From TPA_inf: Saccharomyces (Eukaryota), in contig BK006948.2 in the NCBI GenBank assembly GCA_000146045.2, positions 416,001 through 480,000 of the forward strand: a DNA stretch of 64,000 bases. The letters are read 5' to 3'. The notes under the pieces were generated by a model. It did no database searches. It saw only the letters and a list, made by a program, of their open reading frames with translations, and was not told the DNA's origin. This document shows positions 6,668 to 48,551 of this stretch, piece after piece. A program made the position numbers and the translations under genes. Position 1 is the stretch's first letter. The number at the start of each line of letters is the position of its first letter.

Positions 6668-7816
6668 CTAAAGTTTAGCCTTCTTTTTAGAGGAAAACAA
6701 GTTAGCTATTTTGGACATGAATTGTTTGAAGGTGCTAATCGGGTATTTCATGCTTGCTTGGAATTCCTCCTTTTCAATATCAAATTGTTTTGAATCCGAA
6801 GTATCTAAGATATCTTCAACATCGTCAGTATGTGGTAAAGTTTCAGGATCAACATGGCCCGGTGTGATTGGAATCGAGGTGCTTCTACCTTTAAACGCAA
6901 ATCCAGGGTGGAAGATGGTCAAAGTGACCGTAGCGATGGCCATCATTAATGCATCTAAGATAATAAAATACCACTCGTGTGTGATCAGATAGCCATCCCA
7001 ACCGACAACTAATTCAGCCAAACGGTAACAACAACGGGTAAAAATGGTTAGTACCGCAACGGTTATTGCCAGATTAAAATAATGAAAAACCCAACGTTTA
7101 GGTTCGAGTCTCAAAAAATGGAACTTTTCCCTGTATAAATAATCAACTTCTGTTTGCGATATCTTTAAGAGGCTCAATGAGATAGGTCTAGAATTTATGT
7201 GTTCCCATCTTACCGATATATATATACGGAAAAGGAAGTGAAACCATAACATAAGAAAGATGGCCATCGATGCAACTTGAATGGCCAAACCAGCAATGAA
7301 AACATGATTGCCGGTTGTTGTGGACGTTCCATCTGTGACCGCCACACCACACAGGCCACCGCCTACAGCTTGCACCACAAGCGATACGATATCGGAACAT
7401 ATGAAAATAAAAGAATACGCCATTGGAGAGGGCAATAAAGAGAACCTGTGGCCGTATACTTCTATAAGCTTTGCAAGTTGATAATAAATACCACCCATTG
7501 TGAAAACTGGTGCAATAGTCAAACAAATCATGTTCAAAAGAAAAGCGTCCATATCGGCGACATTAGAATGCGACCACGTCCTCCCTATAAATCCAAGAAC
7601 TTCCAAAATACCTGTGCATATAAAAGCGATTGAAAACCAGTATTGGCGCATCAGTAACTGTACGACATGTATTGTCAGTAGTATACCCCAAATGACAATC
7701 ATCGTGATATTAAAACGAAGGTTCGGTACCATACCACCATAAAGGGAATTACTGTTAGCTGCTGCTTCTAACTGTGGCAAAAGACTGCCTAACGTATTAT
7801 TTGTTGCGTTGGACAT
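6668..7816 (-). CDS. RSB1: Rsb1; Rta1-family multipass membrane protein (sphingoid long-chain-base exporter)
   Basis: 382-aa ORF with about 7 hydrophobic segments, MSNATNNTLGSLLPQLEAAANS...; sits between RAT1 and ETT1 as on chromosome XV. The exact N-terminal start codon is uncertain. Confidence 0.75.
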   Translation of the reverse strand: MSNATNNTLGSLLPQLEAAANSNSLYGGMVPNLRFNITMIVIWGILLTIHVVQLLMRQYWFSIAFICTGILEVLGFIGRTWSHSNVADMDAFLLNMICLTIAPVFTMGGIYYQLAKLIEVYGHRFSLLPSPMAYSFIFICSDIVSLVVQAVGGGLCGVAVTDGTSTTTGNHVFIAGLAIQVASMAIFLMLWFHFLFRIYISVRWEHINSRPISLSLLKISQTEVDYLYREKFHFLRLEPKRWVFHYFNLAITVAVLTIFTRCCYRLAELVVGWDGYLITHEWYFIILDALMMAIATVTLTIFHPGFAFKGRSTSIPITPGHVDPETLPHTDDVEDILDTSDSKQFDIEKEEFQASMKYPISTFKQFMSKIANLFSSKKKAKL

Positions 7817-8845
7817 TTTGAATTTCTCAACGTCTATAATCAGAAAAAAAGTACTGTGAGAAATCTATTTTAGAACAACCAGCAGTAATTAGTTACGCCC
7901 TTAGTATACTATTGCTTGAACTGCTAGGAAACCAGAGTTTACGTAGAAAAGTAATGAATTTTAAGTCTACTACTGAAAGAAAAAAAAAAAATACTTTACT
8001 GTGCAAGCGACAAGGAAAACTCTTCTTATTTCTATTGATTCTGGGGTCGACTGCAAATAATAAACCTTATATAGTGTTTTGCCCATCAGCTCAACTGTTT
8101 TAGGTGAAAATGGGAGGCACACCAAAGAAAAATAAACAGGGCAAATTAGAGCTCCGTGGGTACAACCGATCAGAATCACACCTATTCCCTTTTAGAGAGC
8201 GAGATAGCGAGAAAAAGTCAAGAGCTTTTCGACATTTGCGGAAAAATTACGGGGGATGCTTACGTACAGCTAGGGGGCGACAGAACCCTCAAGGCATGGC
8301 CGTGCAGCACTCGCACAGGACTTGGTGCAAGAAGTTCGGTTACTAATGAGAATGTCAACTATCGGAGCTGCCACAACTACTAGGCAACGTCGTTTTCCAG
8401 TGGTCCCTGACATATCAATTGCCGCACTGTCACTGTGCGCAAATATAATAGGAAACAGAGGACCGACGGAGACCATATCTTTCCGCGGAAAAAGAGTCCG
8501 AGCGAAGTCCGGAAGGAAATATGACGGAGCAAGAATGCTTCCGCGGATGTAAAAGATTGTGCTATGCTCTGGATTGCCCTCTCGGAGAGTTTTGTTGGTT
8601 TGTTTCACTGAAGCCATTGATAATAAACTCTTTATTGGGTGATGACGAGGCTGAGCACCAAAAAACCTAAAAGGAAACCAAAAGTTTAACTCATTAAATA
8701 AGTTGTGACTATATTTCAACACGCGCTCTAATAAATATAGCCTTTCTTTTAGCTTTTCTATAAAACTAGATAAAAATAGTAATTTTTGAGAGTACTTAAG
8801 GCAACAGAAGGAGTGAGTAAAAATAAAAAAGAAGCGTGGATGCGC

Positions 8846-10084
8846 TCAGCCTTGTAAGAAATTGTCCAGGACATCTTGAAATTTACCATGAGAAGCCTTG
8901 TTTGCTTTGCCTAAGATTTCTTCGGCGGTTTTGTAAGCTTCTTCTTGTTCAGCACTTTCATTGTCAAGCAGGTTACCTAGGTCAATATATGCTTCGGCGA
9001 CTTGAACCCAGGTGTCCGGATCATCCTCCAGTTTAGCCTTTTCCAAGTATTCTAAAGCCTTTTTTGTGTGCTTCAAAGCGGTTTCTTGGGCGTTCTTGGC
9101 TTCCTTGTCGCTAACCTTTTCAGAACCGCCATCATCGTACTGTAGGCTTAAGAAAACTTTACTTGGTTCTTCAGCTTTTTTTAGGTATAGTTCCCCTAGG
9201 GTGTTAGCTATTGATGCATAGATTTTCACATCTGTATTTGTGTTGTCAAGCAATTTATCAAAATGGTTTCTTAGCCACTCGTAATTCGCTTCTAGCGATT
9301 GTTGTAGGGGATATACAGGGTGTTCTGGTTCCAACTCAATATCAATGAGTTCCTCTTCCTCTTCATTATCGCTATCTATGCCCTCTTGAATAGATTGTTC
9401 GCGACCAAAATTCTCGACGATGTCCAATAAGTCATTCACCATTTGTAGGATTTCAAAAGTAAATTCAGTATCGTTTTCATAAATTGAAAAATGCTTCTTA
9501 CCATGTTCAAGCTGTCCTACAAGATCAAGTTTTTTATCCTTCGATTTCAAATGGAGATTGGAAATATATTCCAACGGAATCCTTTGGAAAATTATCTTTG
9601 CTAAAACTAGTTTTAGAAATTGGGATTCAGGGAAATGCGAAAGACCTAATTCGACTCTTTCGATAGCACTTTCAAAAAATGAGGATACATCTTTTTTTCT
9701 CTTTTCTTCAGTGGCTTCCTCATCGCCTGCCTTGAAAATAGTCAATTCAGATAAAGCCAGAGCATATATACCATGGAAAATATCGTTCAGCGTCTTCTTA
9801 ATCTCTTTATCTTCTTCAGAAAGACGCAATAATCTGTCACATTCGTGAACGATTCCATTTAAAACATATTCGTCGTCTCTGTCAGAGTGAAAATATTTAG
9901 ACCACAGTCCTTTCAGCTGAGCTAATTCGTCATCTAAATCAGCATCATCGTCAAGCTCAACACTCATTTGACTTCTCACAGGTGTGGATTCTCTGGAAGG
10001 TTCATCGCTCTTCTTTTCGACACTTTCCACCTTTCTTTTCTTTTCTCTACTTTGTTTACCTAAACCTAAGGGTCTTTTAGCCAT
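8846..10084 (-). CDS. ETT1: Ett1; nuclear protein affecting translation termination
   Basis: 412-aa ORF, MAKRPLGLGKQSREKKRKVESVEKK..., acidic; the length matches YOR051C. Confidence 0.82.
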   Translation of the reverse strand: MAKRPLGLGKQSREKKRKVESVEKKSDEPSRESTPVRSQMSVELDDDADLDDELAQLKGLWSKYFHSDRDDEYVLNGIVHECDRLLRLSEEDKEIKKTLNDIFHGIYALALSELTIFKAGDEEATEEKRKKDVSSFFESAIERVELGLSHFPESQFLKLVLAKIIFQRIPLEYISNLHLKSKDKKLDLVGQLEHGKKHFSIYENDTEFTFEILQMVNDLLDIVENFGREQSIQEGIDSDNEEEEELIDIELEPEHPVYPLQQSLEANYEWLRNHFDKLLDNTNTDVKIYASIANTLGELYLKKAEEPSKVFLSLQYDDGGSEKVSDKEAKNAQETALKHTKKALEYLEKAKLEDDPDTWVQVAEAYIDLGNLLDNESAEQEEAYKTAEEILGKANKASHGKFQDVLDNFLQG

Positions 10085-10771
10085 TTCTGTACGATTACTT
10101 TCTTGGACTGTTCTCCTTTTTTCTTCAATTCTTTTTCTTTTGGGTGCCTACAATTGTTCTATTATTTAAAAACTAGTTTATATTGAAATTTTTCAAAATA
10201 TGCAACATTTCAAATGACGAAAAAAAGAGTTCTTTTTCTCGCACTTTTTTTTTTACCTCTTTCGGTCGCAAAACGATATATGCGGAAAATTGTTTTTCCG
10301 CTACAACCTCATGAAATGGAAAAAGAAATGGTGAAGTTACTCCAGCTTTCATTTGTTTATATTTCGATTGCCTTAACGCTTAAAAATGAATTGTAAACAT
10401 AAAAAAAAAGTCGTTTTCTCCCTTTCTTCCCCGTACAAAAAAAGAAACGAAAAACCAAAGACCAACCAACAGATTAGGTTCTTGCGTAAGGCGTTTCAAA
10501 GGTTAAGCACCACTTCTTGATTATTAATATTATTAGTTATACGTTATATAAGAGTAAGTGGTTACAATGAACGGTCTCTCTTGATGAGTCAGGATAGATG
10601 AAGAAAAAAAAAAAAAAAACGAAGAGACCATTCAAGTAATTTATACATGTTATTTTGTAGAGAAATGCATCAAAAGCGTTCTTTTCCCTTGTGTAACATC
10701 AATGCCGATTAGACGTTACAATGCAGTTCCCAGTGAATTAGATGTGTGTATGATTTAACCATGATAGGTGT

Positions 10772-11224
10772 TTAAATTTGTATCTTTGGAGCCTTAGTTT
10801 GTTCAGCTTCTAGCTTATCAGCGTTTCTTTGATGTAGCTGTTCTTTGCAGCTCGTTAAGCCATTACAAGCATGGTTTTCCATTAATCTGTGTTTCGAGCA
10901 AAAGTGACCTTTGCAAAAATTACAGTCACCGATGAATTTCGAAGCCGCACTTGAACAGGTATCGAAATAACAAGCATTCTTCTTTTTCTTCTTGGTCGTT
11001 TTCTTAGTCACCCGCCTACTGCTCTGACCCGTCGATGTCACGCTAGAGTTACTAGAAGACCTTGAATTCAACGGTATAGCACCCAGGACGGTCCCGGAAT
11101 CTGATTTCTTTATCTTAGCGTGGTATGTGCTTTTATCCTCGATCTCATGCATGGGATCCTTGGGAGTAACTTGTCTAATTTCATCCTTTCTGGATGGAAT
11201 TTCGATTTCGTTTATATCAGACAT
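10772..11224 (-). CDS. TMC1: Tmc1; AN1-type zinc-finger protein
   Basis: 150-aa ORF. The C-terminal Cys/His pattern CYFDTC...CNFCKGHFCSKHRLMENHAC is an AN1 zinc finger. Matches YOR052C. Confidence 0.82.
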   Translation of the reverse strand: MSDINEIEIPSRKDEIRQVTPKDPMHEIEDKSTYHAKIKKSDSGTVLGAIPLNSRSSSNSSVTSTGQSSRRVTKKTTKKKKKNACYFDTCSSAASKFIGDCNFCKGHFCSKHRLMENHACNGLTSCKEQLHQRNADKLEAEQTKAPKIQI

Positions 11225-11832
11225 TTTTAGTTTCTATTCTTTTGGTGATTTTGATAGTTTTGTGCTTCACTTGATGTAAATGAATCAGTAAAGCAGAATA
11301 AATAGCGGTTTAGCGGATAGGCTGCTTGATCCTTTTATCCAAGATGTATGATAGAGTCAGGAACTCTTCAAGCGGGAAAGGCGAGAATATCTCTTATGCA
11401 AAGTCTAAGACTTCGGTGGCAAGTATTTCCCTTTTATATCTTCTTTGCTTCTGGGCCGATGCAGTCTTTGCCACCGCCCCCTTCTTTCTTTTTTTCCCTG
11501 ACAGGGCCGAAGCTCGCAGAAAACAGAAAGGTGAAACGAACCGCAGAGCTGTGGAGCATTTGATCTCACCCGCTTTGCGATAAGCTGGCAAGGTTAAATC
11601 GGATTTGAACCACTCCCTTTCCCTCAGAATGAACATCCGATAGAGTGACGACGCACCTCCGCAGCATCGTAAGCGCTAACTATGAGACATAAAACTCCCT
11701 TTGGAAAATGAGTTAAGTGTCCTACTTGCCTATTTTTAGCCTTCTCTTCTGGTTATCAGTGATTAATGCAAATTTATTCTATGTAAAGATATATATAGTT
11801 CAAAAGTTTTACAATAATGAAATTAGTCCTAT

Positions 11833-11962
11833 TTAAGATCGCTGTAGCCCTCCTTTATCTTCTTTCTTTTTTCCTTCATCGTCTTCATCTTCGTCTTCGT
11901 CATCTTCATCGTCGTCGTCGTCGTCGTCATCATCGTCGTCATCATCGTCGTCATCATCATCA

Positions 11963-12004
<42 letters not shown>

Positions 12005-13857
12005 TCATCGTCATCATCATCATCGTCATCGTCGTCGTCGTCATTATCTTCATCTTTACCACCAGTATCGTTCTTCTTATTATCATCCTCCTCATCGTTA
12101 TCTTCATCCTCTTCTTCTTCCTTTCCCGCAGAAACATCGGGATAACCACCTAGTTTGACGACTATCTTGCCAACAATCTCATTTGCATCCATCATCCCAC
12201 TTAACCCGATGTCACCGTTTATGCCCATGACTTTTTCTGAGGGTTTAAATACAGTTACCCAAGGCATCTCTTCTTGAATAATTCGAAAATGTTTTTTAGT
12301 CATTATGGAATTGAACGTACCGCTACCCATTGAAGGCGCTAGGAATATGGGAAACGTTGGATTCCATGCCCTTATTACACTTGTCAAAAGGTTGTCACAT
12401 AAACCAAGGGCAATCTTGGCCAACGTGTTTGCGGTTAATGGTGCGACAACTAGTATATCTGCCCAACGACGTAGTTCTATGTGTAATACAGGATCAGTTC
12501 GTTGTCGCCATACATCCCACTCGTCTTGGTCTGTCCAAAATTGTATATGTGCTGGCAGTTCAATTTGAGGATGTTGCGATACAACGTTTGAAGAGTTGCT
12601 GTACGTACGACTACCACCAAGTGTCGAAGGAAATCCAGTAGTAGAGGCCATTTGTTTTTCTTCCTCCTGTTTATTATTTGTCTGAGAAGCCGCTGAGTTT
12701 GAAGACGTCTTCTGAATGCTAAATTTTTCAAGAGAGGCTACTTTTTTCTTGTTACCAGTTATATTGCCAGCATTAGAATTGGTGCTGTTGAAAGAAGTAT
12801 CGATACTATTGTGTTGTTTCTTATTTTTCCTCATATACTTCATTGCAAAAAATTTGGTTGCTGAGTTAGTTAGTATAACTTGTATGCATATTTTGTCCCT
12901 TCCGTAAATTTCTTCTAATTTTCTGATCATGTGCTTGAGTTTGAAAACAGACAAAGAACCTGTTGCCCCAAAAAGAACGTGTAGCTTGCCGTCATCTTGG
13001 GGAAGCCTTGGATCCATATTGGTCATAATATTTTCTCTCTTCAAGGGATTTGAGACTGCATTGGGAGACATTGCTTCTTCCAAGACAGACTCCAACAATG
13101 TGGGCTCTCCAGTCTTTGATATGGAGCCCTCTCGTTCAATGTTGATGGGGTTAAATGTATTCACTACCACAGAGGGGCGAGGACTAGTACTGTTAGACCT
13201 TGATCTAACTGATGGGGTGTGTAAAGGATCTTCCACGTAGAAATGTGGGTGCTCCTTTCTGGGGCTATCGGAACTATTGTCAGAGTTTAAAATAGAATCT
13301 GTTCCACCGGTGAAACTTAGCTTTTTAGCCAGCAGGCTGGATATGTTATTCCCCATATCAGCATTGGAGAGAATAGAGGTTGGAGTCGAAAAAGAAGAAG
13401 CAGAAGCCTCGCCATCTTTTGGTACTTTTGTATTTATGTCTTTCAAGTTTCTTCCTTGATTTGCACCCTCCGCTGCGATGTGTACAGACGTTGCTTTCTT
13501 TTCGCTGGACTGTCTGGCCACCTGGTTAGGTGGAGTTTGCTCCACATCCGACCTGAGACTACCCAACTTTGGATCGCTGAATGTAACAGTTGGTATCCTT
13601 TTTAACCCTGGCTCTGGTGTATTACTTACAACTGCCCCAGAAGTTCCGCTAGCATTCATGATTGACTTAGTTTGTGAACCAGTGGGACTAGTTGATTTCC
13701 TTACTACAGGAGTGTCCAGACTAGAAACGGAAGAAAATGGTCCCGTAGAATTTGTGTCAGGCATTGCCGATGAACCTATATTGGCCTGCTCAGCTCCAGA
13801 GAGAGTATTCGAAGCAACCCCTTTCCTATTGTTCTTCAGGCTAGATTTGTTTGTCAT
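11833..13857 (-). CDS. VHS3: Vhs3; Hal3/PPCDC-like flavoprotein subunit and Ppz1 phosphatase inhibitor, with a long poly-Asp C-terminal tail
   Basis: 674 aa. The flavoprotein motif HVLFGATGSLSVFKLKHMIRKLEEIY is present, and the C-terminus is a very long poly-Asp run (DDDDD...EDDEDEDEDDEGKKKEDK). Confidence 0.9.
11878..12046. repeat. Imperfect (GAC/GAT)n trinucleotide repeat encoding the Vhs3 poly-Asp tract
   Basis: The plus strand reads ...cgtcgtcgtcgtcatcatcgtcgtc... for about 170 nt. The antisense poly-His/Arg and poly-Thr/Met ORFs (11817-12158 +, 11829-12149 -) are by-products of this repeat. Confidence 0.9.
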
Positions 13858-41820: not shown

Positions 41821-43479
41821 TATATGGTTACTTTTATTAAGTGGTCGGTATTGGTGGTTGTTGTTGTTATTTGTATCCTTGATCTACTCTCCAATAATAG
41901 TTATAAAAATAGAAAGAAAACAAAACAATTAACAGCAGGACAAAAGCCAAACACTATAGCAATCTGGCTATATGATATGCAGAAAATAGTGATTACTGTG
42001 CTCTTTGCTGCATCATGCATCATATGTTTGGCATTCTGTCCTGTCAGATGAATGGGCGAAACAATTCGGGGAGCTTTGTTGCGACTTGGTACCCGGCAAG
42101 CCGCGACCTATATTTTGCATTAAACGAGTTCATCGTGGATTTATCGCCATGAGCCTTAGCTTATCAAGCCTCTCACAGACAATTAAGCAATGAAAAAGGT
42201 ATACCATCGGCGCAGAATGGTTAACTAGTGGGTTCATACTGCTGTGTTATAGATTGTTACCTAAGTGATCACCAAAAAAAAGTGCAAAAAGGAAAAAAAA
42301 ATAAGAGACAGGTAACTTCCACAAGCTTATTCTTCCAAAAATCAATCTTATCTTCATGCCAGCAATAGTTGCGTGCTGAGCTCAACAGTGCCCAACCCTT
42401 GTGCACCGTAGAATTGTAGAATACAAATACATAAATAAGTGTGTTCCCGAAGGACTAAGGAATGACGGCAGAGGAGTCTTGTGACCGCCCTGCTGCAAAA
42501 CTTGGCAAGGACAGAAATTAAGTAATAGATACGCACAACCTTGGAGCACCAAGAAATGGCTGCAAAAGTAAATCTATAGTATTTCAAGCTGAGATATGAT
42601 AATATGTTCAAAGGGCTAAAGTCTCATGAAACAGCGTCACTACAAGTCACATAAAGTTCGTACAGCAAGTCTATGCATGCTTTCCTCAAAAGAACTACCC
42701 AAATATAAACACATATACAAAAATTCAGATTTTACATTTCAGGTTTCCATAATATGTTAAAAGCTAGATCTTACATAGTGTCGGGAACAGGTCATTCTAA
42801 AAAAAGTAAAATAAAATAAAAGGGTTTCAAAGATCCATACTTCTCTACATTCTCTGACTTTTTAAAACTGTGTACTGGCGACCAATCGACAAATCTGCAA
42901 CCCCAGCTTCATAAGCTTTCTCTCCCACCAGCAAAGCCTGGACCTCCCTGGTTCTAATAATGAGCGACTGAAGTTTTCCAAAAGAAACCTTCACTAAACA
43001 TGTTATGCTCCTCAATCACGCGATGAAATAAAGGCCTATTTTTTGATCCAACGCCTTTGAAAATTTCCTTATGGCTGGGTGGGGTACCTACCATGAACAT
43101 GTTAAAGGTAAGTGGTGGCATATTATGGAGTTACGCCCGTATACCAGAGTAATAATGTTGCCGCCGGATAGGCATGGCGCCCCCACCGGATTCTCTTGCT
43201 ATATGGATGGCATAATTAGCTTATGAAAGGATTGGTAAGAATATGTCTTCTAGCAAGAAAATACTAAGAACCAATAGTTCCTTTTTTTATAAAATTATTG
43301 AGCCATACACAATAATGCCGATATTTGTCACCATAGACATACTTGACAGTAAAGTATTTGCAGCTGAGGATCGATCTGGTAGTATTCCCAAATTGTAAGA
43401 TCTGTACAGATTTTCAAATGAAGCGTTGAAGTTTCCTCTTTGTATATTTGAGATCTTCATTTTATCGGATTCTTTGTCA

Positions 43480-45276
43480 TCAGACAACTTGTTGAGTGGT
43501 ACTAAAGGAGTGCTTTTCATCATCCTTTTGGTGAACGATTTCAAATACGTTAGTGTTTTCTGAGCTAGTTTTGATCAATTCAGGTGATTCGTTATCAGAA
43601 CTCTCAGGTTTGTATTCGTGTCCAGTTGTGTAGCATTCGCCTAACGTGTAAGCACGGATTTCTTCCTCAGAAATTTCACTGTATGGAATCATGCCCTTCT
43701 TTCTCGCTTCTTCGTCGGTAAATGCACCATAGTAATCTTTGTCATCATGTCTAACAGTAATTTTGAATGGGAAGAAGACACATAGCCCCCAGTAAACGAA
43801 AAAAGAAATCAAAAAGGAGAAGAAAGAATCACCATAAAAGAATTTAACAATACCTGAGTCGTGGAAATAGTTATTGTTGACTTCCCAAGCGATACCAGGT
43901 AGACCGGGAGCCATACCACACACCCAGGCAACGATAGCTCTCCAGTTGACACCCTTGGTAAAATAGTATTCACCCTTTAGAATAAAGGCATTAGTAATGG
44001 AATATTGCCTCTTCCTGATCAGAAAGTTATCACAGATCATGACAGCAATAATAGGAGTCATGACAACACCGAAAGAACTCATGACAGTTAAGAAAGTAGA
44101 AGAAGAGTTGTAGAAGTTCCATGGCAAACAAGCCCAGGAGATACATGCGCAAAAAAGAGCACCTCTCTTGATATCGACGTATTTGGGCAACAAACCGGCC
44201 ATATCCATACCAGTGGCAAACCCACAGTTGGAGATGGTGGAGGACATTTGAGACATGGTAAAGCAAAGACCACAGAAGAAGGCACCTGCGCGAGCGCCTG
44301 CAGAATAGTTGTTTGTCAACCAATAATCGAATATATCCATGGGCATCCAAAATTGTTTACCGTATAATTTGTCGCAGGTGGAGGCACTAATGACACCGAA
44401 GATTGGGACCAAGGTTGCTGGGATTAGTAATGCACAGACGCTACCGGTCCAGATAGCCAAATTGGAGGAACCGAATCTTGAATAGTCACTTTGGTTGGTG
44501 GAACCTGGAGAAATGGAACCGAACCAGTATGAAATCATGTAAACCCAAGCCCATGCTCTTTTAGAACCAGTAACGGTAGATTTTGTGGAGGTAAACAATT
44601 CACCGACACCATGGGCATTCTTAGTCAAGTAAATCACTATACCCAGCATGGCAAAGCAAGTAGCTACACATGACCAAATTAAAAGGTAGTTCATATGGTA
44701 GGGTTTCATGAAATAGCAGAGCGCGGTGAGGACGTGGAAAATAATGAAGCCGACCAACTGCTTGGTGGTCATGGCAACACTTGGGGACAAAGTATTGGGC
44801 AGGTGCAGATAGTGGTGGGACCAGGAATCTAATATCATGTTGATAGATAGACCACCCAACCAAGCGTTGGAACCATAATTGACAATACTCATCAAAATTC
44901 TAATGATGATACCGAAGGCTGAACCGTAAATGCCAAAAACGAATCTTTGGGCCAAGGTGAAACCGATTTTCCAATCATAACCGGGGTAAGAGTTGGCCAT
45001 AGTGAAAATAATGGTCAAGACATTACCGAGAAGAAACGAAACAATGGTCTCTGGGTAACTTAGGCCGACACTTAGTGCAGCAGAACCACTCATCCATGTA
45101 CCTGCTGTAAAGGACACAGCGCCCCAGTACGCCAAATTAGACCAGAACCCCCATGTTTGATTTGCAGACTTGATAGGTTGCAAATCAGGGTTCCTCAGAA
45201 AATTCACGGCAGTCCTATTTTTGGCAGGAATTTCTAAATATCTCAAAAACTTAGAGACTATACTACTGAAGCTCAT
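43480..45276 (-). CDS. NRT1: Nrt1; nicotinamide riboside / thiamine-family plasma-membrane transporter (NCS1 family)
   Basis: 598 aa, 12-TM; matches YOR071C. Confidence 0.88.
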   Translation of the reverse strand: MSFSSIVSKFLRYLEIPAKNRTAVNFLRNPDLQPIKSANQTWGFWSNLAYWGAVSFTAGTWMSGSAALSVGLSYPETIVSFLLGNVLTIIFTMANSYPGYDWKIGFTLAQRFVFGIYGSAFGIIIRILMSIVNYGSNAWLGGLSINMILDSWSHHYLHLPNTLSPSVAMTTKQLVGFIIFHVLTALCYFMKPYHMNYLLIWSCVATCFAMLGIVIYLTKNAHGVGELFTSTKSTVTGSKRAWAWVYMISYWFGSISPGSTNQSDYSRFGSSNLAIWTGSVCALLIPATLVPIFGVISASTCDKLYGKQFWMPMDIFDYWLTNNYSAGARAGAFFCGLCFTMSQMSSTISNCGFATGMDMAGLLPKYVDIKRGALFCACISWACLPWNFYNSSSTFLTVMSSFGVVMTPIIAVMICDNFLIRKRQYSITNAFILKGEYYFTKGVNWRAIVAWVCGMAPGLPGIAWEVNNNYFHDSGIVKFFYGDSFFSFLISFFVYWGLCVFFPFKITVRHDDKDYYGAFTDEEARKKGMIPYSEISEEEIRAYTLGECYTTGHEYKPESSDNESPELIKTSSENTNVFEIVHQKDDEKHSFSTTQQVV

Positions 45277-45539
45277 GATGATACAGGTGCTGAAGTCCTT
45301 TTTTTGATAGTTATAATGGGGATATCAGTACAATAAAGAATAATATAAATTCTGCAATAGGAAATAATATAGGTAATTGTTCTTGATAATTCTGGAGTTT
45401 ATAAGATTTTAACTCTATTTATGAGAATAGAGAAGGAAAATTAAAACTACAATAGCGAATGCAAATTTTTTTCCCCGAAGAACAAATAGCGGTAGCAACA
45501 CATGCTGACGAAAGTTGTGTTCCTCTTTTTTTGGAGCAG

Positions 45540-46990
45540 GTCTGACTCAACTAAAAAGCTAGCTGCATGCAACCACGCTACATTGGCACACTATATCCTG
45601 ACGCCCGCGCTATACTCTGACGCCTGCGCTATATATTCTGACGTCTACTCCATAACTATTATAGTAGTGGCCACTGTTGTTCGTAACCCGGCGCGGTGTT
45701 CGCTCCGAGCACGAAAATTCTGTCGTTTATTCTCTTCCTTCTTCCAGTTCCATTACTTAAAGGAGCTGTTTTATTTCATTCGAAAGCCCGATGACAAATT
45801 CTCCTCTTTCATATAAATTAATAAGGCGGTCAGCAGGAAACTCCTATTGCCAACCGTCTTGCGAACCGACCGGTCGCTGCGCGCGATCATGCGTCCACGC
45901 GCTTCTGTGGCGACGGACGACTACAGCAAGACATTACTCTGGTCATTTACGCCTGGCGCCCAGAATGTACAAGCGCAGACGGCCAGATCATATGATGAAA
46001 CGGAATAGTCCCAGCTATACCGGTGATCACAAGACGTAGTTACATAGATGCCTTGGCGCCGACACGATATTTCTTGTCGTTCTGTGCCAGTAATTCCTTT
46101 TCTTCTCGACTATGCCTCTAAGACGTCAGTCTTGGAAGCATAGTCTTCGTAAAAAAATTTTTTTTTTGAGGTTTTTGCTTCCATTTCTTTAGACTGAACT
46201 AATTTATTTTTTTTATTATTATTCAGTAATTTTTATATATTTATTTATGGACTTATTGAGGTGCTTTGGGGGTGATGACGTCCCCAGTGAGGCCCCCAGG
46301 GTAGTGGACCGCACCTAACTTCCCATTCATGATGTGATTACGCATTTTAATCTTGTCTATATGTTCTACAATGATGGCGTCAGTGCCAATGCCGTTCGCA
46401 TCTATGAGGGAGATGAACTCGCTCTCGGCCGTTGGGTTTGAGGCGGTGCCGTAGTGTCCGCCTTCATTCCGGCTTCGCGGTGTCTACGAGGCATTCATTT
46501 TATGTCGCGGCAACTACTTGATATTTTCCACCAGGCACAAGGAGAAACATGGAGAAATTATATATAGAGAACTATGAGTCCTGAGGCGGCCGTTCAGTAG
46601 CTCAGATTGCCAGGGTTAAAAATTGCTCCTTGGCATCCTATGTGCTGCATACTAAAAAATTTTTAGCCACGTAGTTGTATACTTTTGTTTCCGGGGATGA
46701 GAAATTAGCCCCAGGTCCCAGACTTACAACAAGGTAGATAGGGGGGCGCACCTTGTCGTCATGAGACCCATTTCGTAGAAACTTGAATTTGTTGTTGTTA
46801 CTTCTGTTTTCAAGTAGGAGTAACGAGGCCGCGTACAATTTGCCAGTGGATTTGTCGCCTGCAGCAGCGGCCGCGACGCGACGGGTTGATCCAATTTTGT
46901 GCTTGCTTCTTCAACTGAATATTTTGAGTCCACTGCATGTGGAAAACAGAGTTTTCAGTCAGTCTTGTATGTATATTATTCTCTTTAGCT
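45540..46990. other. GC-rich island lacking long ORFs, with short tandem repeats and palindromes; function unknown. It overlaps only short 'dubious' ORFs.
   Basis: I counted 111 G+C in the 200 nt at 45841-46040, i.e. 55.5%. Tandem CTGACGCC(C/T)GCGCTATA repeats lie at 45598-45650. GGGGGTGATGACGTCCCC is at 46264-46281 and GCGGCCGC at 46869-46876. The only ORFs are 60-104 aa, Arg/Cys-rich, and probably spurious. Confidence 0.6.
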
Positions 46991-47538
46991 CCAGAATTTC
47001 TGCTGTGCTTAGTAACTTCTTGCCGTTGAGCTGATTTTAGTAGTATAATTTTTTTGCAACTCTACTGATATCAAGAGCAGTGATATGTGCTTTAATGTTG
47101 GCATTTCTTTCAAGCCAATCACCTTCTACCATTGGTCACGGTCTCAGTATATTTGTCGTAAATATTAGTACTCTAGTCTGGTCAGAGAAGTGGCCTTTCT
47201 CCCACCAAAACGTTGTTGTTCTGTCTTTTTTCTTATTATTTACTATTTATTGGATTTATCAAAAATTCCTCAGGAACAAGATTTAATATTCTTGAAAATC
47301 CTGTATGTCATAAATCATGAGCTTGGAAATTGACACGAAATATCGGATGGCACTACTTGATGATCGTTTTTATCACTACCGCTGTACTTTAATTTCATAA
47401 TTTATTTGGTGACATTTCTCTTGAAGATCTGGCAAGATGTACACGGGGAGCTCCTTCAACTGTTAAAAATATTTTTAAAAGTAAAGACGTCACCATACTT
47501 TTTCACCATAAGAACAATTACTGGTCCAGATTAAGAAC

Positions 47539-47885
47539 GGTTGGAGTAAGAGCCAATTATCATTCATTGACTGGTATTTCCTTTTGAACTATATTATCAT
47601 ATAATAGGTAAGAAGATGGCAAAAAGGAAGGAGAAACAGTGGTCTGATGTGATAGGGAAGTAAATGTCAACAAATACCTAACAGTACTATCTGATCGAAC
47701 AAAGAAATTCCACCAAACTGTCAGTAAATTTATTTAATGAGCAGCAAGGACATAGTGCACAACTAGCACTCTACTTCGATTGGGTTATTGAGGAAGAGGA
47801 TAGTATGCCCGGAATTTTCAAGCATTTACATGATTATGGTTTCATTGGGGTGCAAGAAGACCCAGCATGATTAGATTGCTATGTA
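47539..47885 (+). mobile_element. Diverged solo Ty1/Ty2-type delta LTR, possibly 3'-truncated
   Basis: cGGTTGGAGTAAGAGCCAATTATCATTCATTGACTGGTATTTCC...ACTATATTATCATATAATAGGTAAGAAGATGGCAAAAAGGAAGGAGAAACAG aligns by eye at about 70% identity to the delta 5' end (TGTTGGAATAGAAATCAACTATCATCTACTAACTAGTATTTACG...AGTATATTATCATATACGGTGTTAGAAGATGACGCAAATGATGAGAAATAG). It lies about 560 bp upstream of tRNA-Pro, a typical Ty1 target zone. Confidence 0.45.
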
Positions 47886-48449
47886 CTCATTATATAATAT
47901 ATCTCCGATGAATATATTTCCGAAAGTTTACTGAAGGCGACCTTGGATAAACCATAGTTTTACGGCAAATACACCATATCACTATTTTCTTTCTATATAG
48001 CTTTGCTAAGGCTTTTTTTAGTGACCGAGACAAAGAAGAAAATTTTCCATAAATGAAAGACCATTGTTTATTCCGAATCAAGTTTTCCGAAGAATTGTTG
48101 TATTACACAGTCCAGAGACAGCAGAATCTTTCAGAAATTTTAATACTGTTGTGACAGCATCTTGTCTATTATTTATTGGATACGCAAAACTCATTTTTTT
48201 AAAATTTTTTTTATAATTTCCTTTAAATAAAAAGGTTAAAGCTGGGAAAAATGCATCTAAATAATAAACTAATGATTTAGTTTCCCTCATTTAAAATATC
48301 TAAGAAGGACAGAACTTTGTTTGGGGTACTTACCCTTGAGTATTTTTAGCGATTATTCTTGGAGTTCTCAGCCAGAAGATTAAAAGAATATATGTTACTG
48401 AATGCAGTGTGATACTCAAGACTAAGTAGTCTTAACAACAAGTTAACAA

Positions 48450-48551
48450 GGGCGTGTGGTCTAGTGGTATGATTCTCGCTTTGGGCGACTTCCTGACTAA
48501 CAGGAAGACAAAGCATGCGAGAGGCCCTGGGTTCAATTCCCAGCTCGCCCC
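48450..48551 (+). tRNA. tP(UGG): tRNA-Pro(UGG) with a 30-nt intron (48486-48515)
   Basis: GGGCGTGTGGTCTAGTGGTATGATTCTCGCTTTGGG [cgacttcctgactaacaggaagacaaagca] TGCGAGAGGCCCTGGGTTCAATTCCCAGCTCGCCCC. Anticodon TGG. GGTTCAATTCC T-arm. The intron lies 3' of anticodon position 37. Confidence 0.92.

Follow-up and report, generated by a model that had tools for sequence, protein, structure and literature searches.

The window analysed here is a 64,000-nt stretch of Saccharomyces chromosome XV (contig BK006948.2, positions 416,001 to 480,000, forward strand), in which a GC-rich island lies upstream of NRT1. Between positions 45540 and 46990 the GC content is 45.3%, a value reached by just 0.2% of the 1451-nt windows, whereas the window as a whole averages 38.1%. 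The 200 nt at 45841-46040 have a GC content of 55.5%, which is essentially the window maximum at that length (0.56 at 45831). Both the enrichment and the local peak had been noted in an earlier, sequence-only reading of this DNA, and a windowed GC count reproduced them. The observed/expected ratio of CpG is 1.09 in the GC-rich stretch versus 0.82 window-wide. It is important to note that the island is not uniform, as it contains an AT-rich trough at 46100-46300 (34-35% GC). The features of the locus, together with a related relic elsewhere, are as follows.

about 42852-43360, minus strand: relic of ERF2 (palmitoyltransferase, YLR246W), extending from the DHHC motif through the C-terminal end
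43480-45276, minus strand: NRT1 (YOR071C), a 598-aa open reading frame, the one gene of the copied block that is still functional
45277-46039, minus strand: region upstream of NRT1, copied from the TOP3-THI7 spacer and the THI7 promoter, with the GC peak at 45841-46040
45476-45714, no strand: insertion of 239 nt that is present in the NRT1 promoter but not in the promoters of THI7 and THI72
45502-45816, plus strand: 104-aa open reading frame from the ORF list, spanning insertion and copied spacer
45591-45650, no strand: 19-nt tandem repeat (CTATATTCTGACGCCCGCG), 2.3-2.7 copies (TRF: 2.3 copies at 45591-45634)
45791-46039, plus strand: 82-aa open reading frame in the copied GC-rich spacer, ending next to the relic stop codon
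46040-47389, minus strand: pseudogene (relic) of TOP3 (DNA topoisomerase III, YLR234W), 5'-truncated, Top3 residues 217-656
46257-46483, minus strand: 75-codon frame, the best-preserved stretch of the TOP3 relic, Top3 residues ~530-570 (PMTESELILLMDTNGIGTDATIAEHIDKIQVRNY)
47390-47750, no strand: 361 nt separating the relics of TOP3 and BNA5; by the chromosome XII gene order, this would be the place of EST1 and of the TOP3 and BNA5 5' parts
47751-47951, plus strand: relic of BNA5 (kynureninase, YLR231C), C-terminal residues 385-452
48450-48551, plus strand: intron-containing tRNA gene (Rfam tRNA, 48.8 bits)
L008 8469-9396, no strand: TOP3 relic at the THI72 locus (SACE0Op7), Top3 residues 311-646

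A tblastn search of the window with the yeast Top3 sequence P0003 gave an E-value of 5.5e-28, and P0005 and P0060 gave 1.4e-16 and 4.5e-9, respectively. When a fungal Top3 HMM was run against the 3083 stop-to-stop fragments of the window, four collinear minus-strand fragments took the top ranks, the best two fragment matches in the relic having E-values of 5.8e-13 and 6.2e-9. In a frameshift-aware alignment, residues 217-638 of S. cerevisiae Top3, as encoded on the metagenome contig L005, align to 47389-46078 with a score of 763 and 229 of 410 codons identical (56%); a Top3 sequence used as a probe agrees with this protein at 654 of 656 residues. The parental TAA stop has been kept at 46040-46042. 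With P0003 as the query, the frameshift-aware score was 502, compared with 42-90 for control DNA. On the DNA level, blastn aligned the relic to L005 TOP3 with 68% identity over 1071 nt (E 6e-94) and a 3' TOP3 piece with 76%. The only matches to the relic in a large protein database were the stitched S. cerevisiae gene models P0001 and P0002 of the relic itself. A chimeric Top3+NRT1 query of this database yielded, among the 120 matches listed, neither an NRT1 homologue nor a named Saccharomycetaceae Top3, but just one unnamed yeast-like sequence, P0003.

The stop-free minus-strand frame at 46257-46483, to which the sequence-only reading had drawn attention, is present with the translation quoted there. 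It matches TOP3B and TOP3A in the PDB with E-values of 0.005-0.013 (TOP3B 0.005), positions 297-359 of the Pfam family Topoisom_bac (E 0.017) and the fungal Top3 HMM (E 5.8e-13). Its length is ordinary: 91% of the region shuffles hold an open frame as long or longer, and the mean longest frame in these shuffles is 100 codons. Pfam detected the Topoisom_bac catalytic domain (PF01131) in one frame (E 0.017); on X-masked frames this weak match was the only one, and the method missed the BNA5 and ERF2 relics.

The relic carries 6 in-frame stops, 19 frameshifts and 29 codon indels. At the active-site motif GFISYPRTET it reads RII/TY-KTD*, i.e. the motif is broken by a frameshift, a deletion and a stop. 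Whereas TOP3 is intact, the relic lacks residues 1-216 including the Toprim domain (PF01751), for which the relic region gave neither an HMM nor a tblastn match. The N-terminal 219 residues of Top3 scored 37 against 47380-48449 in the frameshift-aware alignment, with controls at 31-46. Truncated, disabled and neutrally evolving, the relic is not a functional member of the Top3 family. It can be likened to the 'gene relics' that Lafontaine et al. are said to have described in 2004.

The parent region is found on the metagenome contigs L005, L006 and L013, which carry BNA5(-), EST1(-), an intact TOP3 (656 aa), 610 nt and THI7. The order and orientation of the relic and NRT1 are those of intact TOP3 and THI7 on chromosome XII, and THI7, the downstream neighbour of the parent gene, corresponds to NRT1. 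NRT1 and THI7 (L005) share 84.9% of their nucleotides and 85.7% of their amino acids (Ks 0.73, Ka 0.07); the blastn match of the coding sequence has 83.8% identity. On the far side of the TOP3 relic, blastn aligned 47746-47918 to L005 3610-3435, i.e. BNA5, with 73% identity (E 4e-21); tblastn gave 7e-8, and the frameshift-aware score was 146 compared with at most 46 in controls. The ERF2 relic begins just past the NRT1 stop codon, where the start at about 43360 is a by-eye reading of a DHHC-like motif. It matches the PDB entry 8hfc_A ('Palmitoyltransferase ERF2') with an E-value of 9e-23, and tblastn of 43262-42852 gave 1.4e-20. Both flanking relics stand at the expected ends of the block in the expected orientations. 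By tblastn or frameshift-aware alignment, neither EST1 nor the N-terminus of Top3 nor residues 1-384 of BNA5 could be traced in the region 47390-47750. TOP3, BNA5 and ERF2 are also the only protein homologies that emerged.

The NRT1 upstream region is part of the same copy. A spacer piece at 45827-45784 is 85% identical to L005 9687-9733 (blastn), and a three-way alignment of the regions upstream of NRT1, THI7 (L005) and THI72 (L008) has pairwise identities of 56-69%, with invariant blocks that include CACAGAAGC and GCCTTATT.ATTTATATG. Since collinearity with chromosome XII extends to the spacer, to the THI7 paralog and to the fragments of BNA5 and ERF2, the TOP3 relic is not a retro-copy. Its homology to a paralog, its lesions and its copied flanks identify it as an unprocessed (duplicated) pseudogene, and the island is dead DNA from a DNA-level segmental duplication. 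We therefore conclude with high confidence that the GC-rich island is a decayed, non-functional copy of TOP3, which was duplicated from chromosome XII together with the THI7 gene that gave rise to NRT1. The earlier suggestion of a decayed gene was right in kind, although the parent is not among TRZ1, MTD1, RPF2, NUP133 and DAD2, the genes that had been suggested.

The tRNA gene at 48450-48551, which following the sequence-only reading we take to be tRNA-Pro(UGG), has an intron; it was missed by ARAGORN in default mode and found by Rfam and by aragorn -i. As a candidate member of the copied block it was rejected, for the tRNA beside BNA5 on chromosome XII (L005) is different and unrelated. A weak test with k-mers from the ends and the interior of LTRs gave no match near the locus.

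The THI72 locus (L008) harbours BNA5 residues 283-430, TOP3 residues 311-646 and an ERF2 relic. This is the same cassette as at the NRT1 locus, i.e. a BNA5 fragment, a 3' piece of TOP3, a THI7-like gene and an ERF2 fragment. The two loci also resemble each other at the junction that directly follows the stop codon: NRT1 and THI72 have about 25 nt in common there, which THI7 does not have. The TOP3 relic at THI72 is shorter and more decayed (48% codon identity), with independent stops, and the locus lacks the 239-nt promoter insertion and adjoins a tRNA-Met gene. Among the disabling lesions of the two TOP3 relics there is no shared stop, and only 11 derived residues are shared; frameshifts near residues 607-626 are possibly common to both, with imprecise placement. 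The NRT1/THI7/THI72 tree is star-like (41/33/37 informative sites). On the basis of the shared architecture and junction rather than phylogeny, NRT1 and THI72 probably descend from one composite cassette derived from chromosome XII.

The pattern of substitutions separates the relic from its parent. On the relic branch, the changes at codon positions 1, 2 and 3 number 84, 85 and 61, compared with 17, 1 and 50 on the TOP3 branch. The distance along the relic branch at positions 1+2 is 0.325, and half of the Ks between NRT1 and THI7 is 0.36. Since the changes are spread evenly over the codon positions and their rate is close to that of synonymous sites between NRT1 and THI7, the relic has decayed neutrally since the duplication. 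The age of the duplication and the lack of frame conservation are judged from paralogs within S. cerevisiae. Every Saccharomyces contig compared belongs to this species, with an identity of 98.8% or more to NRT1, THI7 or THI72. Strains diverge by 1.1-1.7% in the relic and by 0.2-0.6% in the NRT1 coding sequence. Changes from GC to AT outnumber those from AT to GC on the relic branch by 124 to 57 (2.2:1). The relic can thus serve as an internal neutral clock and as a readout of mutation bias.

The parent TOP3 has the same GC-rich composition as its relic. With a GC content of 48.6% and a GC3 of 0.54 it is the GC-richest of the 43 ORFs examined, and the parental TOP3-THI7 spacer has 47-58% GC (L005 9401-9700). 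The codons in the 75-codon frame that had been called non-yeast do stand out, for the GC3 of this frame is 0.63 versus 0.36-0.47 in the window genes, and the composition of the parent accounts for it. The island owes its GC content and its atypical codons to the fact that TOP3 and the spacer are GC-rich, an imprint that is fading: the homologous part of parental TOP3 has 50.5% GC, the relic 41.9%. In the live TOP3 gene, a GC gain of 3.6:1 was observed, which is opposite to the relic.

From the observed homology, collinearity, truncation, neutral substitution pattern and parental GC content we infer the size of the original copy and the order of duplication and deletions as follows. After the whole-genome duplication (WGD), a piece of chromosome XII with the order BNA5(-), EST1(-), TOP3(+), THI7(+) ... 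ERF2(+) would have been copied in inverted orientation into chromosome XV, between GYP1 and SGO1 and beside a tRNA gene. The interior parts, i.e. 5' BNA5, EST1, 5' TOP3 and FAR10 through CDD1, may have been lost at the event or soon after, leaving a cassette made up of the BNA5 3' fragment, the TOP3 part from residue 217 onwards, the spacer between TOP3 and THI7, the copy of THI7 and the ERF2 3' fragment. Selection would have been retained on the THI7 copy alone, which became NRT1. The truncated TOP3 copy, devoid of a start codon and the Toprim domain, would have drifted neutrally and accumulated stops, frameshifts, indels and AT-biased substitutions, and the relic DNA presumably has no present-day function.

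The pseudogene itself is already known, having been catalogued by Lafontaine & Dujon 2010 (BMC Genomics 11:260, PMC2876123). Table S1 of that paper lists SACE0Op5 at chromosome XV 462079-463441 C, which is 46079-47441 in the window, with YLR234W as the best match, a relative length of 0.64 and, by their method, 14 stops and 14 frameshifts, compared with 6 and 19 here for the same relic. The BNA5 relic corresponds to SACE0Op6 (463754-463960 W, YLR231C) and the ERF2 relic to SACE0Op4 (458847-459433 C, YLR246W), both on chromosome XV. In the table, Op5 and Op7 are not marked as mutual duplicates, and no BNA5 or ERF2 relic is listed for the THI72 locus; the searched text and tables of PMC2876123 do not tie the relics to the origin of NRT1 or THI72. 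NRT1 (=THI71) and THI72 have been classed as genes gained after the WGD (Gordon et al. 2009, PMC2675101), and 34% of gene-gain sites adjoin tRNA genes (PMC2675101). As with these dispersed gains, the site studied here lies beside a tRNA gene, and the clustering of gene-gain sites next to tRNA genes is the loose sense in which the earlier idea of a Ty/tRNA-associated scar holds. Whereas Gordon, Byrne & Wolfe 2009 handled the gains gene by gene, the relics reveal a multi-gene chromosome XII unit that was later reduced. They show that the gains of NRT1 and THI72 were not single-gene events, but that a multi-gene segment was pruned and re-copied. If the composite cassette is correct, the 'two gene gains' would amount to one multi-gene segmental duplication followed by re-duplication.

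Among the alternatives, the one that survives best is that the region, or a part of it, now functions as regulatory DNA of NRT1, with the GC-rich relic kept as an extended promoter or as a unit of non-coding transcription. The 239-nt insertion, which spans the interval 200-440 bp upstream of the NRT1 start codon, matched only NRT1 loci among all sequences compared. It holds a perfect AP-1/Gcn4-type TGACTCA at 45543, the 19-nt tandem repeat and four TGACG candidate sites (45506, 45599, 45618 and 45639). In addition, some spacer blocks are invariant across the three paralogous promoters, and the folding z-score at 45801-46100 is -1.94 (7 of 200 shuffles as good). However, the repeat number and the TGACGTC site vary between strains: the strain contig L003 has one extra repeat copy, and TGACGCC where the window has TGACGTC. 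Clusters of at least three TGACG per 60 bp occur three times in the window, by chance or in coding repeats, the densest being a poly-Asp coding repeat. With 56-69% identity, the spacers are not better conserved than the neutral relic, and the relic proper evolves at a neutral rate. A regulatory role is therefore unlikely in our estimation. The tandem repeat with three TGACG sites exists as previously described, yet these sites are copies of one repeat and not independent; compared with full TGACGTCA-type CRE sites, there are only half-sites and one TGACGTC, all in the tandem repeat of the NRT1-specific insertion. A supposed near-perfect palindrome proved to be an 18-mer (GGGGGTGATGACGTCCCC) located at 46268-46285, not at 46264-46281, with only 10 of 18 positions self-complementary, which is equalled by 5.7% of the window 18-mers. 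It is a doubtful proposition, too, that the spacer and the insertion were exapted to uncouple NRT1 from thiamine-type regulation; if so, strains would differ in NRT1 expression with the number of their repeats.

An unannotated structured RNA gene, which would suit a GC-rich and ORF-poor island with a marginal z-score of -1.94 at 45801-46100, is highly improbable. A search of the window with Rfam down to E = 1 found no family except the tRNA at 48450-48551, the core of the relic has a folding z-score of +0.35, and the sequence is fully explained as former coding DNA plus spacer with a neutral substitution pattern. The earlier proposal of a structured or regulatory RNA finds no support in these results.

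Horizontal acquisition or introgression from a GC-richer organism, also raised before, might be read from local GC and GC3 values well above the norm and from the atypical codons of the open frame. It deserves next to no credence, for the relic is nearest to TOP3 of its own genome (56% codon and 68% DNA identity versus 43.5% codon identity to the next available yeast Top3), native TOP3 is equally unusual in composition, and the flanking relics and the spacer reproduce native chromosome XII gene order. Neither closer relatives outside the host lineage nor a foreign composition were found. The result is a clean negative: a foreign-looking GC-rich spacer is the neutral wreck of a native gene.

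That the island is instead the relic of a WGD ohnolog lost from the chromosome XV block (the counterpart of TRZ1, MTD1, RPF2, NUP133 or DAD2) is scarcely conceivable: the surrounding genes would, according to the sequence-only reading, form a sister block with chromosome XI, and the 3.1 kb interval is unusually long for yeast, but all protein homologies are to chromosome XII genes in chromosome XII order, NRT1 is a post-WGD gain (PMC2675101), and the Ks of 0.73 is far below saturation, so that neither a sister-block position nor a WGD-age divergence is seen. In Hanseniaspora, TOP3 is followed by MSC2-COQ4-RAV2-SPC19, so that the WGD counterpart of this region is of the chromosome IV type, not chromosome XV.

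As for the two plus-strand ORFs of 104 and 82 aa, both are present in the ORF list as reported earlier, and we take them to be the dubious YOR072W and YOR072W-A, respectively, in line with that attribution. A Pfam scan of the minus-strand frames over 45502-45816 gave no match, and an ORF of such length is to be expected in GC-rich DNA, given the 100-codon mean of the shuffles. Because the GC-rich spacer is stop-poor, YOR072W and YOR072W-A are chance ORFs, and the short 'mRNA' models in population assemblies (P0001, P0126) are probably artefacts of the same kind.

The GC-rich, ORF-poor island at 45540-46990 is almost certainly an unprocessed, 5′-truncated TOP3 pseudogene together with a copied spacer, a by-product of the duplication that gave rise to NRT1. 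Among the origins proposed in the sequence-only reading, a decayed gene or pseudogene was the right one, and the parent is TOP3 of chrXII. The compositional anomaly is real: the island has 45.3% GC where the window averages 38.1% (sd among windows of equal size 2.8%), which places it in the top 0.2%, and the 55.5% GC counted at 45841-46040 is essentially the window maximum at the 200-nt scale. Its cause is ordinary and already documented. An AT-rich trough at 46100-46300 makes the island patchy. The two small plus-strand ORFs noted earlier (45502-45816 and 45791-46039) are present, and no long ORF lies between the NRT1 start codon and the tRNA. Window coordinates equal chrXV coordinates minus 416000, an offset confirmed by published pseudogene coordinates (PMC2876123).

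Features around the island
45276, minus strand: NRT1 start codon (ORF)
46040-47389, minus strand: TOP3 relic
47751-47951, plus strand: C-terminal relic of BNA5 (kynureninase, YLR231C), between TOP3 relic and tRNA
48450-48551, plus strand: intron-containing tRNA (Rfam)
42852-43360, minus strand: relic of ERF2 (YLR246W, DHHC palmitoyltransferase), directly downstream of the NRT1 stop codon

YOR072W-B (48346-48516) is described as overlapping the tRNA-Pro gene and as paralogous to YOL013W-A at another tRNA-Pro (PMC11299112); it falls outside the GC island.

The 75-codon minus-strand frame that had been singled out does exist, although it is expected by composition, as 91% of shuffles contain one. 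Its translation matched the PDB entries of human TOP3B and TOP3A (E 0.005) through the conserved GIGTDA...HI motif, and Topoisom_bac in Pfam (E 0.017). The protein database matches listed comprised fungal Top3 but no named Saccharomycetaceae proteins; tblastn with the closest among them, the yeast-like Top3 P0003, gave a summed E of 5.5e-28 on the minus strand of 46301-47216. When an HMM from 56 fungal Top3 proteins was run on all 3083 stop-to-stop fragments of the whole window, the four top ranks (47246-47139, 47125-47012, 46910-46641 and 46483-46256) were all minus-strand and collinear, with best E-values of 5.8e-13 and 6.2e-9. A frameshift-aware alignment of P0003 to the relic scored 502 versus 42-90 for control DNA; for the N-terminal ~200 residues of Top3 the score was within control level. 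Aligned with S. cerevisiae Top3 (residues 217-638; 229 of 410 codons identical), the relic shows 6 stops, 19 frameshifts and 29 codon indels, and it keeps the parental stop codon (46040-46042). In many S. cerevisiae strain assemblies, spliced 'mRNAs' of 119-202 aa have been annotated automatically at the relic (P0001, P0124-P0128). These models are probably annotation artefacts, because P0001 (119 aa), the one whose sequence was read, joins stitched fragments of the TOP3 relic.

With the NRT1 protein as query, all three paralog loci of S. cerevisiae were found among metagenome contigs. Contigs carrying the chrXII locus (L005, L006, L013) have the order BNA5(-), EST1(-), intact 656-aa TOP3(+), 610 nt, THI7(+), FAR10 and more genes. 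The S. cerevisiae Top3 sequence is identical to Top3 from L005 at 654 of 656 positions. THI7 directly follows TOP3 on the same strand, just as NRT1 follows the relic, and the homology is collinear at the DNA level.

Collinear segments, window = L005
47385-46334 = 8072-9108: TOP3 codons 218-563, 68%, E 6e-94
46188-46077 = 9231-9334: TOP3 3′ part, 76%
45827-45784 = 9687-9733: spacer, 85%
45376-43508 = 9897-11769: THI7 leader and CDS, 83.8%

The TOP3-THI7 adjacency was also found in a more distant yeast contig, L010. In Hanseniaspora osmophila (L002, 3006-15735) the order is EST1, TOP3, MSC2, COQ4, RAV2, SPC19; since THI7 is not beside TOP3 there, the adjacency is derived within Saccharomycetaceae. 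In L005 (9169-9954, minus strand) one antisense ORF of 261 aa covers both the TOP3 3′ end and the TOP3-THI7 spacer, where the dubious ORFs YLR235C and YLR236C lie; this is a further chance ORF in GC-rich DNA.

Substitutions were polarised with TOP3 from L010.

Substitutions per branch
Relic: codon positions 1/2/3, 84/85/61; GC>AT 124; AT>GC 57
Live TOP3: codon positions 1/2/3, 17/1/50; GC>AT 13; AT>GC 47

The relic branch is without coding constraint, whereas live TOP3 is constrained as a functional gene should be. As the relic-branch distance at positions 1+2 (0.325) is also close to half of the NRT1-THI7 Ks (0.73), the copy has been neutral since duplication, as expected for one born without its 5′ third. 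Strain-to-strain polymorphism in the relic is 2-3 times that of the NRT1 CDS.

Foreign DNA is not indicated by the GC content or the supposedly non-yeast codons, the TOP3 parent being GC-rich itself. TOP3 (48.6% GC, GC3 0.54) is at the top of 43 ORFs examined (means 39.2% and 0.385); its part homologous to the relic reaches 50.5% and the TOP3-THI7 spacer up to 58%. The aligned part of the relic now has 41.9% GC, with substitutions AT-biased 2.2:1, and the 55.5% peak lies in the copied spacer, directly 3′ of the relic stop codon. Composition and codons thus carry over a parental imprint that is fading. Live TOP3 (L005 7420-9390) has itself gained GC since the duplication (47 AT>GC vs 13 GC>AT, mostly third positions); one candidate cause would be a recombination hotspot at which gene conversion is biased.

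An RNA gene finds little in its favour: the island has no Rfam match, and folding z-scores are unremarkable (-1.94 at 45801-46100, +0.35 in the relic core). The 'near-perfect palindrome' sits 4 nt away, at 46268-46285, and is self-complementary at only 10 of 18 positions, a value equalled or beaten by 5.7% of all window 18-mers. The tandem repeat was borne out (TRF period 19, 2.3 copies, 45591-45634), as were the TGACG sites near it. The upstream regions of NRT1, THI7 and THI72 are homologous (56-69% identity in a three-way alignment), and a 239-nt insertion private to NRT1 (45476-45714) contains the repeat, all TGACG sites and one TGACTCA. The 19-nt repeat (45591-45650) is copy-number polymorphic, with one additional unit in the S. 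cerevisiae strain contig L003 (431-740), which reads TGACGCC at the window TGACGTC. The insertion could play a regulatory role, at low probability. In the densest TGACG/CGTCA cluster of the window (11850-12050), 8 sites fall within 160 bp. This cluster is a (GTC/ATC)n repeat that reads (GAC/GAT)n on the minus strand, where it would specify poly-Asp should it be coding; it has no relation to CRE sites.

The copied block exceeds the island in size. The ERF2 relic was detected by tblastn (43262-42852, minus strand, E 1.4e-20) and with ERF2 of PDB 8hfc (E 9e-23). Order and orientation agree with chrXII YLR231C ... YLR246W, with EST1 and FAR10 through CDD1 absent; for the 361 nt between the TOP3 and BNA5 relics (47390-47750) no origin was found by tblastn with EST1, BNA5 and the Top3 N-terminus. 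In Table S1 of Lafontaine & Dujon (2010, PMC2876123), SACE0Op5 (YLR234W, 462079-463441 C), SACE0Op6 (YLR231C, 463754-463960 W) and SACE0Op4 (YLR246W, 458847-459433 C) match the window relics, so the island pseudogene was already catalogued. New beyond the catalogue are the cause of the GC content, the demonstrated neutrality and the same cassette at THI72, for which the table has only the TOP3 relic (SACE0Op7, YLR234W).

Relics at the THI72 locus (L008)
7612-8030, minus strand: BNA5
8469-9396, plus strand: TOP3
12003-12355, plus strand: ERF2

THI71 (=NRT1) and THI72 are post-WGD gains, and about a third of gain sites lie beside tRNA genes (Gordon, Byrne & Wolfe 2009, PMC2675101). The BNA5/TOP3/ERF2 relic cassette is common to both loci, as are ~25 nt just past the stop codon that are absent from THI7. 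Judged from these shared sequences, both gains probably go back to a single composite intermediate, for which the gene tree, being star-like, gives no support either way. At silent sites NRT1 (43480-45276), THI7 (L005 10001-11797) and THI72 (L008 10001-11800) are nearly equidistant (Ks 0.65-0.86). Protein evolution has been strongly asymmetric, with 1 unique amino-acid change versus the outgroup in THI7, 18 in THI72 and 26 in NRT1.
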